Assembly: GCA_965223505.1 (NCBI GenBank)
Contig: CBDCWP010000021.1
Location: forward strand, 96,001 to 160,000
From: Planctomycetota bacterium
Lineage (GTDB): Bacteria > Planctomycetota > PLA2 > JAEUHO01
DNA length: 64,000 nucleotides
Direction: 5' to 3'
This document shows positions 17,541 to 21,236 of this stretch, in pieces (positions within the stretch are counted from its first letter, which is position 1; each line of letters starts with the position of its first letter). A program made the position numbers and the translations under genes. The notes under the pieces are model-generated. The model did no database searches, had not been told where the DNA came from, and worked only from the letters and a program-made list of their open reading frames with translations.

Positions 17541-17751
17541 GGGGGCGCTTGGGCAGCCACAAGGGCAGCCCCTACGGGGAATCGTCACGTGCACGTGAAC
17601 GTGCACGACACCCCGGACCGCGACGCGGTGAACGCGGATACGGATGTAGGGGCGACCCTCGTGGTCGCCCAATTAAACGTCTCTTGGCGTCCCGGGTTGG
17701 GCAGCCACAAGGGCTGCCCCTACACGCGTTCAATGCATGGGCTGCCCCTAC
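17537..17751. repeat. Cluster of GTAG-family REP-like palindromes (REPIN/BIME-like)
   Basis: GTAGGGGCGACCCTCGTGGTCGCCC at 17646-17670 (+); reverse copies GGGCAGCCACAAGGGC(A/T)GCCCCTAC at 17551-17575 and 17699-17723; partial copies starting at 17537 and at 17739-17751. Confidence 0.85.
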
Positions 17752-20045
17752 CGGGACATGTGCAACAACATGAGCGCGCTGGCGGTGCCGAAGTTCTTTC
17801 CGGCGCCGTCCCAGTCCAACCACGTTCCGTCCACCTCGACGACCTGCAACACGTCCTTCCGCAGCTGCTTCATGATCTGCTTGCGTTCCGATTGCGGCAG
17901 CAGCTGCGCCGCGCGCGCCGCGTGGTAGTACGCGAAGAAGTAGAAGTACGCCGAGACGCCGCGGGGCGCAGTCCAGCTCCCCGTCACCTTCGCGACGGTG
18001 CGAAGGTCCGCGCGGTACTGCATGAACGTGTCGAGTGCCGTGCGCACGTCTTCGATCTTCGTCGCCTGCAGCAAGAAGAGCGCGTGCTCGCAACCCGGCG
18101 CCCGCCCGATCGACGACTCGAGCTTGTTGAAGTTCCGCGGCTCGGGATAGGTGTAGGTGAACACGCCGGGCGCGTCGCGCATCTTCATCAGCACGTCCTT
18201 GCCCTTCTCGAGCACCTTGTCCTCGACGACCAGTCCGAGCTTCTTGGCGCGAACCAACGGGATCAGTGACGGCGCGGTGTTCATGCTGTGCACGCGTCCC
18301 TTGTCGGTCTCCGGCCAGCCGCCGAATCCGCCCTTCCAGCGCTTTGCGAAGGCGGCGTTGTAGGACCAGGCCCCGTTCTCGACCTGTCCTCCGACGTGGA
18401 ACGCCACGGCCTTCTGCGCTTCGTGCTTGAAGGACTCGTCCTTCTCGAAGCGGTCGAGAAAGAGGTCGAGCGCGTAGGCGGTTCCGAACGAATCCGCGTT
18501 GGCCACATCTCCTTGCATCCAGTGCTTCAACCAGTCGATCGCCTTCTGCACGGCTGCCGCGGCGCGCGTCTTCTGTTCGCCCTTCAGGGTGTCGGCGCGG
18601 ATGTCGAGCGCGCGCGCGACGAGCGCGGTGACCGGCGGCACCCACTGCATGTGGCGTGCGCCGAGCAGCCACGAACCGTTCGGCTGCTGCTGAGCCAGCA
18701 GGTAGTCGATCGCGTGCTTTTCGAGCTCCTTGACCTTGCCCTCGGCGAACGGAAGCTCGGTCGAGGTGCCCTTGCGGGTGTACTTCGGCTTCTCGAGAAC
18801 CTCGTACATCGCCATGCGCTCGGGCCAGGCGTGCCACGCGCGGACCTTGAGCTGATACGGACTGTCCTTCGGGAGCTTGTTCCACGATTCGACGGCGCCG
18901 TTTCGGTCCGTGGCCTTGTGCTTGCGCGCGCCTTCGATGTAGTCGGCGGGCGGCGGCACGAACTTCGGCTTCTTGCCGATCTTGACCTTCGCCTTCGCGA
19001 GCGCGCCCAGGAGGAACTCGTGGACGAGCTCCGGGTCGAACGTGCCGATCCCCTCGATGCTGTCGACGGGTTTCCCGTCGTCGCCGGTCACGAGCAACGC
19101 AAACGGCTTCACCTCCTTGGCCGAGCTCCCGAGCGGCGCCAGCGGGTCGGGGCCGCGCAGGAACTTCGCCGTCCATGCGTTGCCTCCGTAGTGTGCGCGC
19201 GTCGGGACGAAGTGCGCGCGGACGAGATCGCGGACGTTGGGATCGGCGAGCACCGTCGCGAGGAAGATCTCCTCGACGTCGCTCTTCCCGTTGTCGCCGT
19301 ACGCGCAACGAACGAAGCAGAGCACCGGCTTCTTCTCCGCCTTCGCCTTGGCCATGCCCTGCGCGGGCGTTCCCGCCCACTCGACGAGCTTCATGAACTC
19401 GGGGAGGACGGTCGGCTGCGGCGGCCCGGACATCGGTTGGGGCGCGACGAACTTCAGCGGCTTCTCGGCCTTGATCACCCACCCATGGAACGTCGCGGCT
19501 TGCGCCGCGGCGTCGCGTACGACGTTCGTGACGTCGACGCGGATCTCCGAGATGCCCGGGGCGATCTCGAACGTGACCTCGGGCTCCGGCGCGATCTTCG
19601 GCTGCACGTTCCACGTCGTCTTGTGTTCTTCCCACGGTTCCTGGATCGGATAGATCCCGGCCGCGAGGTTCTCCGTCAGCGGGATGGAGCCCGGCGCCAC
19701 CCGCATGACGAGCTCGGCTGCATGCGCCTTCTCGAGTCCCGTGAGATCGAAGTGCAGGAGCGCTCGATTGCGATCGGTCTGGTCGATCGACATGTTCGTC
19801 ATGCGGCCGAAGTTGCCCTGAGCGAGGTACGAGATCACCATGCCGTCGGCCTTGGCCTTGCGCTCGATCTGCTCGCCGTTCTGACGAACGCAGACGAGCC
19901 TGGGGCCGTCGCCGTGCTCCTTGGTCATGAACTTGACCCACTCGGGGCGCGACGTCGAGCGAGGCTCGGGCTCGTCCTCCTTGCCGCGGGCCGCTCCGGC
20001 CGAGAAACACACCACCAACAACGCCGCTGCGACCACTCGCACCAT
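17748..20045 (-). CDS. Secreted multidomain protein: DNRLRE-like beta domain, thioredoxin-like domain and prenyltransferase/squalene-cyclase-like alpha/alpha toroid
   Basis: Signal peptide; RALLHFDL...W.E...TWN.QP (DNRLRE-like); W...AKAKAEKKPVLCF...VLADPNV...HFVP (Trx-like); LLAQQQPNGSW, QVENGAWSY, DGTW (QW-like repeats). Confidence 0.7.
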   Translation of the reverse strand: MVRVVAAALLVVCFSAGAARGKEDEPEPRSTSRPEWVKFMTKEHGDGPRLVCVRQNGEQIERKAKADGMVISYLAQGNFGRMTNMSIDQTDRNRALLHFDLTGLEKAHAAELVMRVAPGSIPLTENLAAGIYPIQEPWEEHKTTWNVQPKIAPEPEVTFEIAPGISEIRVDVTNVVRDAAAQAATFHGWVIKAEKPLKFVAPQPMSGPPQPTVLPEFMKLVEWAGTPAQGMAKAKAEKKPVLCFVRCAYGDNGKSDVEEIFLATVLADPNVRDLVRAHFVPTRAHYGGNAWTAKFLRGPDPLAPLGSSAKEVKPFALLVTGDDGKPVDSIEGIGTFDPELVHEFLLGALAKAKVKIGKKPKFVPPPADYIEGARKHKATDRNGAVESWNKLPKDSPYQLKVRAWHAWPERMAMYEVLEKPKYTRKGTSTELPFAEGKVKELEKHAIDYLLAQQQPNGSWLLGARHMQWVPPVTALVARALDIRADTLKGEQKTRAAAAVQKAIDWLKHWMQGDVANADSFGTAYALDLFLDRFEKDESFKHEAQKAVAFHVGGQVENGAWSYNAAFAKRWKGGFGGWPETDKGRVHSMNTAPSLIPLVRAKKLGLVVEDKVLEKGKDVLMKMRDAPGVFTYTYPEPRNFNKLESSIGRAPGCEHALFLLQATKIEDVRTALDTFMQYRADLRTVAKVTGSWTAPRGVSAYFYFFAYYHAARAAQLLPQSERKQIMKQLRKDVLQVVEVDGTWLDWDGAGKNFGTASALMLLHMSR

Positions 20046-20144: not shown

Positions 20145-21140
20145 CTACTCGCCGTCGGTCTCTTCCTCGAACGGCTCGTGACCGGCAGTGGTAAACGCGT
20201 TGCCGATCGCGGCGAAGTCGACGACGTTTTTGCGCCCGACGACCGCGATCGCGTCGTTGTCGAGGTCGGGGTGGACGGCCAGCACGCCCTTCATGGGCAT
20301 TGGAAGACGGAACAGGTTCAGCGCCGTCGCCCCCTTGGGCAGGTTGTGGAACTCGAACTTGTGGAGGACGAAGCCGCTCTCGTCCCAGGCGGCCTTGCCG
20401 AGGGTCTTCGGATGCAACAGCATGGCCGAGTGGAACGTCCGGTCCTTTGCGGTCGTCCCCACCGGTACGGGATCGACGAGCTCGGCGCCTTCCCAGCGGG
20501 TCAACGGAGCGAACGAACCCGGACGCGTCCGGAACTCGAGACGTTCGACACCCGCCTTGCGGGGCACGACGGAGACCTTGATCTCCCCGGCGAAAGAGAC
20601 CTTCGCACCTTCCTCGATCTCCTTTTTCAGCTTCGAGATCTGTTCCGGCGTGCCCTCGTACACGTAGCGCGTCGTCGCGTCCGCCGTCTTGGCGGCCTCG
20701 ATCGCCTTGGCAAGGTCCTTCGGATCGAGCGCGCCGTCGAGCGCCTTCTCGAGGCTGATGCTCGTGACGCGATTGCCGTCGCCGTCCATGACGAAGAGCG
20801 CCGGGCGCGACGTGTCCATCGGCTTGAGCAACAGATAGCCCTCGGGCACCTTGACCATGACGCGCACGAATCCGTCCGCCGCTTTGATGACGGGTTCGGT
20901 GTTCAGTACGTCTCCGAGCCGACCGCTCGAAAAATCAAGGCTGCTTCATCAGGTCGCGCCGCCGGACATGCCGACGAGCACGCGGCGCTTGGTCTCCTTG
21001 GCCTTGGCGGCCGCGTAGACCAGCGACGTGTAGCCCTCGTAGTTCCAGGTGAGCTTGGGTGTCTCCTTGGGCGCCTCTTCGGCGGGCGCGGGCACCGCGC
21101 AGACGGCGAGGCCGAAGACGAGGATGAGTACGGTGCGCAT
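20145..21140 (-). CDS. Candidate secreted thioredoxin-fold selenoprotein (331 aa) with tandem in-frame UGA-UGA at residues 64-65 and a C-terminal HMA-like domain
   Basis: The 63-aa ORF and the 240-aa ORF are in the same frame (starts 273 nt apart). The only stops between them are TGA at 20951-20949 and TGA at 20948-20946. Reads ...RRVLVGMSGGAT-U-U-SSLDFSSGRLGDVLNTEPVIKAADGFVRVMV...; SECIS-like hairpin follows. Confidence 0.72.
20911..20933 (-). promoter_or_regulatory. Putative bacterial SECIS element
   Basis: Minus strand UUUUCGAGC-GGUCG-GCUCGGAGA: 9-bp stem (two G-U pairs), apical loop starting GGUC, loop 21 nt after the second UGA. Confidence 0.68.
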
Positions 21141-21162
21141 GCGATCAGGCTAGCAGGGTCCG

Positions 21163-21236
21163 GTAGGGGCAGCCCTTGTGGCTGCCCAAGGACAGACGAA
21201 CATCCCTGGTCGGGCGACCCCAAGGGTCGCCCCTAC
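21163..21236. repeat. Inverted GTAG-REP doublet (REPIN-like)
   Basis: GTAGGGGCAGCCCTTGTGGCTGCCC at 21163-21187 and reverse copy GGGCGACCCCAAGGGTCGCCCCTAC at 21212-21236; same family as the 17.5-kb cluster. Confidence 0.85.

Follow-up and report, generated by a model that had tools for sequence, protein, structure and literature searches.

In eukaryotes the selenocysteine (Sec, U) insertion sequence (SECIS) lies in the 3′ untranslated region and acts at a distance, whereas a bacterial SECIS is placed at a set distance from its UGA codon, and in the textbook cases one hairpin serves one codon. Within the literature searched, consecutive Sec-Sec is found only in the algal protein PDI_e, which carries a GUGUU motif and occurs in haptophytes and the SAR group; its authors call it the first consecutive Sec-Sec in any selenoprotein and report no bacterial homologue (Jiang et al. 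2020, PMC7539508). Here we describe a locus of a Planctomycetota bacterium (GenBank assembly GCA_965223505.1, contig CBDCWP010000021.1) with two adjacent in-frame TGA codons in a candidate gene for an exported thioredoxin (Trx)-fold protein. The locus occupies positions 20145..21140, on the minus strand, of a 64,000-nt stretch of that contig (forward-strand positions 96,001 to 160,000), which is called the window below and whose numbering is used throughout. We put the probability that 20145..21140 is one gene for an exported Trx-fold protein, with both UGA codons decoded as Sec by means of one hairpin, at about 0.85.

The proposed protein resembles PDI_e in being a Trx-fold protein with two consecutive Sec residues. 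PDI_e differs in being eukaryotic, in having three Sec residues and in using a eukaryotic SECIS, the two being compared by description only. Here the SECIS lies inside the coding sequence at a fixed distance, and the mechanistic problem is therefore a different one. The described bacterial Trx-fold selenoproteins include Trx, a thiol:disulfide oxidoreductase of the peroxiredoxin (Prx)-like type, a thiol:disulfide interchange protein and DsbA/DsbG-like proteins, with UxxC, CxxU and UxxU motifs (PMC13188914). They share with the present candidate the fold, frequent export, Sec in place of the redox Cys at the loop-helix junction, a bacterial SECIS (bSECIS) just downstream and the existence of Cys homologues. 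They differ in that the present family has U-U, or C-C in its Cys versions, without a spacer, and in that one SECIS would serve two codons. The NF041199 Trx7/PDZ (seleno)protein combines Thioredoxin_7-like and PDZ domains, as does the PDZ subfamily of the present family described below, but its domain order is reversed and it has a CxxU motif and 1 Sec. The DsbD-gamma, DsbH and Thioredoxin_7 types (1vrs_D, 2ju5 and 3f9u_B), all periplasmic, are the best structural matches to residues 26-153 of the predicted protein; they differ in having CxxC and are 12-18% identical to it. In high-molecular-weight thioredoxin reductase the C-terminal centre is Gly-Cys-Sec-Gly in mammals and Ser-Cys-Cys-Ser in Drosophila, and the pair cycles through an eight-membered ring. 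The site proposed here, [T/S]-U-U-[S/A/P/G], would likewise be a vicinal chalcogen pair with small or hydroxyl flanks, but inside a Trx fold, whereas the reductase pair contains one Sec and sits in the flexible C-terminal tail of a flavoenzyme; no homology is implied.

Table 1 of a prokaryotic selenoproteome review of May 2026 lists 119 families or subfamilies, with motifs including UxxC, CxxU, UxxU, CU, UxxxxU and UGC (PMC13188914). A UU motif was found neither among these 119 families nor by a string search of that review (PMC13188914). The main texts of BSepDB and deep-Sep contain no mention of adjacent or multiple Sec, and the family could be in the BSepDB family table; a full-text literature search, with subscription papers and that table outside its scope, found no consecutive Sec in bacteria. 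A preliminary description of the locus, made from the sequence alone, had known of no bacterial UU selenoprotein, and none turned up in the literature searched, Table 1 of PMC13188914 included. Judged by its sequence and its relatives, this is very probably one UU gene, and adjacent Sec-Sec with a single SECIS is not listed for bacteria in the catalogues consulted.

Reading frame, conservation and selenocysteine machinery

The minus strand around the site reads ...GGC ATG TCC GGC GGC GCG ACC TGA TGA AGC AGC CTT GAT TTT TCG AGC GGT CGG CTC..., with the first TGA at 20951-20949 and the second at 20948-20946. Genetic code table 11 yields two open reading frames (ORFs) in the same frame, one of 63 aa (20949..21140) and one of 240 aa (20145..20867, minus strand). 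The latter, with a GTG start inside the Trx domain, is the gene callers' version of the gene, and the protein database holds a 237-aa form of it (P0002). When TGA is read through, a single frame of 331 residues results, with U64-U65 and a terminal TAG (20145-20147), and homologues from 27 other Planctomycetota genomes and 27 metagenome loci are open across the same site. The earlier claim that this frame is broken only by TGATGA was confirmed, 21140-20145 being open for 331 codons, and all the peptide strings quoted with it are found in the read-through translation.

An open frame across TGATGA is by itself no more than chance. The hexamer occurs 2457 times in the genome, counted on both strands (67.4% GC); 296 of these occurrences are in frame with at least 40 open codons on either side, and in 17 of the 296 the open stretch reaches at least 63 codons upstream and 240 downstream. 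Since such a frame is unremarkable in this GC-rich genome, the case rests on comparison. A two-sided filter for coding composition, using GC content at third and second codon positions (GC3/GC2), was passed by 1 of the 296, namely this site, where there is also a hairpin with a stem of 6 bp or more and GU in its loop. The GC3 value upstream of the UGAs is 0.95 and the one downstream 0.86, compared with 0.89 and 0.91 in the neighbouring genes. An assembly check at TGATGA, as proposed earlier, revealed no error: Logan contigs of 4 runs span the site with zero differences, but as the runs stem from a single study (2 samples) that probably also gave rise to the assembly, they are not independent support.

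A homologue is present in 7 of 61 related genomes (the source genome counted among the 61), at 33-44% identity and with two in-frame TGAs each. All seven have the TGAs side by side, preceded by a conserved ...LVGLxGxx[T/S]. Among 401 genomes sampled evenly from the phylum, 28 gave a match, with at least 2 TGAs in 27 of the 31 matches listed. In the other 4 listed matches, which have no stops, the site is not covered or the match is marginal (E 7e-4 to 3e-9); the marginal ones, in G017 and G250, are stop-free at E values of about 6e-4 to 7e-4, and one of those two (L062) lacks the motif. The adjacent TGATGA could be located in every genome locus that carries 2 or more TGAs. Scanning metagenomes with Cys-form homologues as seeds added 38 loci, and the site was located in 34 of them (the exceptions being L099, L101, L108 and L123). 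Twenty-seven of these 34 sites are UU, all with TGATGA, and 7 are CC, with the pair encoded by TGT/TGC. When all loci are pooled, there are 50 distinct 132-nt UU contexts, and TGATGA (20946..20951 in the window, minus strand; codons 64-65, proposed Sec-Sec) is invariant in them. CU or UC intermediates were found neither among the 34 metagenome sites nor among the 27 genome matches. The coding sequence is conserved on both sides of the UGAs (alignment A2). The preliminary description had proposed comparing homologues at residues 64-65; they have UU or CC there, and never occur as two separate complete genes. Identities down to 33% and the existence of two architectures argue for long-term retention, whereas the genome counts overstate the number of independent events, the relatives not being independent. 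By these sequence matches the family appears to be Planctomycetota-wide, with Cys-Cys versions elsewhere.

In protein databases the family is mostly seen in pieces. Searched exhaustively with a profile, 1.84 billion representatives yielded 167 matches. By a count made by eye, about 48 of the 150 matches listed are N-terminal fragments of approximately 50-130 aa, most of them 50-70 aa; they end at profile position 58-61, and 8 that were examined end in ...G..T directly before the UU. Most other listed matches begin past the site, and 4 that were examined use an alternative start a few residues after the UU. Such split fragments are the usual database footprint of an unrecognised selenoprotein. 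When the joined protein was used in a word-based search, the sole match was the 237-aa fragment from the window itself. Twelve proteins among the matches listed span the site (from ENA, JGI, Logan and NCBI gene calls): 10 have CC, one has a deletion and one has HL. One cluster includes a hypothetical protein of a candidate division KSB1 bacterium.

The Sec machinery, which had been named earlier as a check, is present: tRNA-Sec, selA, selB and selD are all found in the source genome (5.15 Mb in 44 contigs, 92% complete), and all four exceed the curated cut-offs. The tRNA-Sec reaches 69 bits, with the cut-off at 47, and is classified by ARAGORN as SeC with anticodon tca, and SelB, SelA and SelD score 336, 507 and 338 bits, respectively. 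SelD carries an in-frame TGA of its own, within GAGGUAAK. Among the 66 tRNA genes, that for tRNA-Sec alone has a UCA anticodon. TGA is otherwise a normal stop in this genome, where long coding ORFs end with TAG in 1242 cases, with TGA in 934 and with TAA in 136. As a reference set, 20 genes were chosen by motif (UxxC, CxxU or TU) from a crude scan for in-frame TGA. Eighteen of the 20 match Pfam redox families across the U (AhpC-TSA/Redoxin, Thioredoxin_7, Thioredoxin_2, DUF3179, CMD, T4_deiodinase, HMA and DsbH), and the source genome is therefore selenoprotein-rich. It has at least 18 further selenoprotein genes, in 20 places (loci L066-L085), of TlpA/Redoxin, Thioredoxin_7, DUF3179, CMD/AhpD-like, deiodinase-like, HMA and DsbH-like types.

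The SECIS-like hairpin downstream of the UGA codons

The strongest single element of the case, absent from the preliminary description, is a SECIS-like hairpin which begins after 12 nt past the second UGA and extends from 20933 to 20911 (minus strand): UUUUCGAGC-GGUCG-GCUCGGAGA. Its 5′ arm UUUUCGAGC (20933-20925), loop GGUCG (20924-20920) and 3′ arm GCUCGGAGA (20919-20911) form a 9-bp stem with a folding free energy of -11.2 kcal/mol. Counted from the second and the first UGA, respectively, the loop starts at 21 and 24 nt and its GU lies at 22 and 25 nt; a 7-bp core of the hairpin begins 14 nt past the second UGA. The bSECIS model, as quoted in a review of the prokaryotic selenoproteome, requires an apical loop of 3-9 nt, an upper stem of 4-16 bp, G in the first two loop positions, a UGA-to-loop distance of 16-37 nt and a minimum free energy of at most -7.5 kcal/mol, and the hairpin satisfies every constraint quoted there (PMC13188914).

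The organism's own selenoprotein genes provide a second standard. In a set of 21 (the 20 scanned reference genes and selD), 17 have a simple hairpin whose stem is 5 bp or longer and whose loop contains GU. Their UGA-to-loop distances are 17-27 nt (one is 34) and their UGA-to-GU distances 18-27 nt (one is 34), with a median of 22 in both cases. Both UGAs of the present gene fall within the range of spacings evidently accepted by this organism's SelB.

The hairpin is also conserved as a structure. Its register is identical in all family members except L044, where an extra codon is present and the hairpin has moved 3 nt. In a set of 25 sequences 88.9% of the cells are paired, compared with 22-56% when the partners are slid, and in a set of 7 sequences the corresponding values are 90.5% and 29-52%. 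Covariation, with changes on both sides of a pair, is seen at 4 pairs among the 25 sequences and at 3 pairs among the 7. For the 25 sequences the observed values were reached by 0 of 500 shuffles on 4 of 5 measures and by 15 of 500 on further pair types; for the 7 sequences they were reached by 4 of 500, and by 24 and 112 of 500 on two pair-count measures. The loop follows the pattern N-G-U-N-N (GGUCC, GGUUC, CGUGA, CGUGC, GGUGC or AGUUU), with GUUCC as the one exception. Out of 7 core pairs, 6-7 are kept in each of the 27 UU loci, whereas the 7 CC loci keep 2, 3, 3, 4, 4, 4 and 6. Since the UU loci have an intact hairpin and the CC loci a degraded one, the hairpin tracks the UGA codons and not the protein family.

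Two less specific searches were negative. A permissive Rfam scan of 20860-21000 gave no SECIS family and two chance-level matches (E >1), a result of low weight as bacterial SECIS elements are short. The 81-nt region as a whole folds no better than its shuffles (z 0.53), and weight is therefore placed only on the local hairpin and its conservation.

Another gene of the same genome, outside the window, is worth recording here. At C30:182694-183719 (plus strand) a WD40-like ORF of about 340 codons encodes G-K-G-U-G-P-U, with two in-frame TGAs 9 nt apart and a single hairpin, of loop GGUCC, 27 and 18 nt downstream of the two. This ORF may encode a UxxU selenoprotein in which, again, one SECIS would serve two codons.

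Protein architecture and gene neighbourhood

A model by AlphaFold2 (AF2), made from a 6-sequence alignment with U written as C, has a mean predicted local distance difference test score (pLDDT) of 80.7 and a predicted template modelling score of 0.79. The N-terminus has pLDDT <50 in this model, and hydrophobic N-termini are conserved among the homologues. Residues 1-20 (21081..21140, minus strand; MRTVLILVFGLAVCAVPAPA / EE) are, from inspection of the translation by eye, a probable Sec-type signal peptide. Residues 26-153 (20682..21065, minus strand) are predicted to adopt a Trx fold that spans the UU. In VIA-align this part gives a Z of 12.8 to 3f9u_B (root-mean-square deviation 2.1, 114 residues aligned), 11.7 to DsbH 2ju5 and 11.2 to DsbD-gamma 1vrs_D, and Foldseek assigns probabilities of 0.99-1.0 to Trx and DsbD. 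The model places the UU in the loop that follows strand 53-59, where the next helix starts. This agrees with the earlier proposal that the UGAs stand at the redox-Cys position, the modelled loop-helix junction being where thioredoxins carry CxxC. R112-P113, invariant in 6 of 6 sequences and placed before strand 114-118, is probably the cis-Pro loop. Residue 92, the start of the 240-aa ORF, falls within strand 91-97 of the model. Since the downstream ORF would thus start inside a strand, neither half is a domain on its own, and the structure check with U changed to C bears out that the predicted Trx fold needs both halves. Taken together, the homologues, the Sec machinery, the hairpin and the fold support the reading first given to this sequence, in which both UGAs would encode Sec in a Trx-like protein.

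The C-terminal region, residues ~155-325 (20166..20678, minus strand), consists of alpha/beta domains according to the secondary structure of the AF2 model. Within it, residues 256-325 resemble the HMA-type ferredoxin-like fold (Z 9.4 to CsoZ 6ff1_A and 9.1 to ATP7B 6a71_A, over 69 residues). They have no conserved Cys after the first strand (GMxCxxC is absent), and the protein of the window (P0001) has no Pfam HMA match; P0004 scores 16.4 bits against a PF00403 threshold of 24.8. The Trx domain likewise misses the threshold of Pfam PF13899 Thioredoxin_7 (12.4 bits against a cut-off of 27, E 0.18). A CxxC or UxxC motif is absent, the site being [T/S]-U-U or C-C with no spacer, and no model in Pfam or NCBIfam reaches its threshold for the family. 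NF041199 (threshold 300 bits) has no match in P0001 or P0003, and PDZ-bearing CC homologues reach 23-40 bits against it, in the PDZ part only.

Two architectures occur in the family. One, that of the window's protein, has Trx(UU) followed by ferredoxin-like domains. The other has a signal peptide, PDZ and Trx(UU) in about 270-300 aa (...SGAETUU[PGA]STRFES...IIIRRPHAY), and in this PDZ subfamily a further TGA approximately 95-100 codons past the UU terminates the protein. Two genomes, G258 (L065, L047) and G329 (L045, L064), contain two PDZ-Trx(UU) paralogues each, about 1.5 kb apart on one contig; L065 shows TGATGA and the hairpin in both copies. Most members of the first architecture end with ...AGC[K/P/E]..., its Cys conserved, in alignment A2, the window's protein having AGH and that of G027 GGL. 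The homologue in G029 (L027 / L060) is a 121-codon form from which the middle of the protein is deleted. It retains TGATGA, the hairpin (loop GUUCC) and a C-terminal ...AGCEARAKP tail, and may be a decaying copy or a minimal variant.

In the window the gene is flanked by genes for a 3-hydroxyacyl-CoA dehydrogenase and a 765-aa exported CBM96 protein. The latter (17748-20045, minus strand), downstream, has a hydrophobic N-terminus, a CBM96 domain (E 3.7e-14) and weak matches to repeats of the squalene-hopene cyclase and pectate lyase types. It lies 99 nt past the stop of the selenoprotein gene, a pairing not kept in other genomes. Since the neighbours vary in other genomes, the selenoprotein gene is probably autonomous. 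The intergenic region upstream of the gene (21144-21217) contains the strong palindromes GGGCGACCC-TTG-GGGTCGCCC and GGGCAGCC-ACAAG-GGCTGCCC. Contig depth climbs up to ~60-fold over this region, and its 32-nt core has 30 genome matches at up to 3 substitutions, counted on both strands. It is a dispersed repeat resembling repetitive extragenic palindromic (REP) elements, or a terminator.

Alternative explanations and proposed mechanism

Three alternatives deny that the protein is a double selenoprotein. One or both UGAs could be read by a non-Sec tRNA (near-cognate Trp, Cys or Arg, or a suppressor), giving a full-length product of another kind, and it speaks for this that double SelB decoding at adjacent codons was not found for any bacterium in the literature searched. 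We consider it improbable: the only tRNA with a UCA anticodon is tRNA-Sec, the hairpin fits the bSECIS model and is retained only by the genes with TGA codons, and the Cys homologues have Cys at both positions, the classic Sec/Cys pattern, the 34 metagenome sites and 27 genome matches including no CU or UC intermediate. A still smaller probability attaches to the idea that translation ends at TGATGA, the locus being either a broken gene or a gene for a 63-aa exported peptide followed by a separately started C-terminal protein. Gene callers annotate the split form throughout the databases, a double stop is a strong terminator, and the G029 homologue, with its 121 codons, is internally deleted. 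But a pseudogene would not retain TGATGA, the frame and the flanking protein in 50 contexts down to 33% identity. The earliest downstream start lies 27 codons past the UU, inside a beta-strand of the Trx fold, its use would leave the conserved residues from the UU up to it untranslated, and GC3 is of the coding type on both flanks. Bypass of the UGAs by a programmed frameshift or ribosome hop, stimulated by the hairpin, we regard as close to negligible. A stable hairpin after a stop does mark some recoding sites; here the frame is unchanged across TGATGA, so that two compensating shifts or a 6-nt hop would be required, there is no conserved slippery sequence (the preceding codon is ACC, ACG, TCG, GGC, CAC, GCT or GGG), and the GU loop and the spacing match the genome's own SECIS elements.

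A fourth alternative accepts the UU and contests only the functional half of our proposal: the vicinal diselenol would bind a soft metal or metalloid (Hg, Cu, As, or Se itself) or pass it on, with no thiol-disulfide exchange. Vicinal Cys pairs bind Hg in MerA. The last domain has an HMA metallochaperone fold in the model (Z 9.4 and 9.1), and several of the listed bacterial multi-Sec families bind metal, among them a UxxU 'putative mercuric reductase' and MbdU with two CU motifs (PMC13188914). Against this, the HMA-like domain has no conserved Cys motif and falls below the Pfam HMA threshold, the second architecture replaces it with PDZ, usually a peptide-binding domain, and there are no metal-resistance genes nearby. 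We consider a metal role unlikely but worth serious thought. If both UGAs do encode Sec, a redox function of the pair has about an even chance.

Several points weigh against double Sec decoding or the function proposed for it. All the evidence is computational, and every sequence comes from metagenome-assembled genomes or metagenomes; no RNA run containing the gene was found. Two successive SelB-dependent insertions would be costly if each were as inefficient as is reported for E. coli, and a near-cognate amino acid at one of positions 64 and 65 is a possible outcome. Conservation of the hairpin may partly reflect the encoded F-E-S-G/R-x-L-S peptide, although the CC forms retain F-E and L-S but not the hairpin pairing. 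In the model the active-site block 61-70, with a mean pLDDT of 77, is the least confident part of the Trx domain. The pair is lost in two full-length family members, P0036 and P0076 (by a two-residue deletion and by replacement with His-Leu), so the family scaffold can persist without a redox or metal pair. As to function, the gene neighbourhood was compared among the loci; the neighbours vary and offer no clue.

On the reading we prefer, a single gene would produce an exported protein of about 34 kDa with a signal peptide, a Trx-fold domain and C-terminal ferredoxin-like domains, UGA 64 and UGA 65 both being decoded as Sec by SelB and Sec-tRNA(Sec). One SECIS hairpin in the coding sequence, with a stem of 7-9 bp and an N-G-U-N-N loop, would direct both decodings. 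Presumably this hairpin remains folded as the ribosome advances by one codon, and it would then recruit a second SelB-GTP-Sec-tRNA complex; the same hairpin could do so because both spacings are inside the organism's range. The Sec pair would most likely be a vicinal diselenol/diselenide redox couple acting on periplasmic thiols or proteins, and Sec-Sec at the nucleophile position may close an eight-membered diselenide ring. In the sister architecture the partner domain is PDZ, which suggests that the substrates are proteins or peptides. On balance we lean towards the full proposal, in which one SECIS programs two back-to-back SelB insertions that yield a vicinal diselenide in a Trx fold, the first bacterial Sec-Sec.

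If this is true, the SelB-SECIS complex tolerates a 3-nt change of register and reloads within one elongation cycle, and the family is a natural test of the register tolerance of the SelB-SECIS-ribosome assembly and of the speed of second SelB recruitment. No bacterial counterpart is described for the redox or metal-binding centre that a vicinal Sec-Sec in a Trx fold would form. The databases break the family into pieces of about 60 and 250 aa, and Pfam, NCBIfam and Table 1 of the recent review miss it (PMC13188914); counts of the Planctomycetota selenoproteome are therefore too low. Finally, if the proposal holds, Planctomycetota would export a diselenide catalyst, which may serve, for example, in oxidative folding that is independent of DsbB and recyclable by O2, or in the capture of soft metals.

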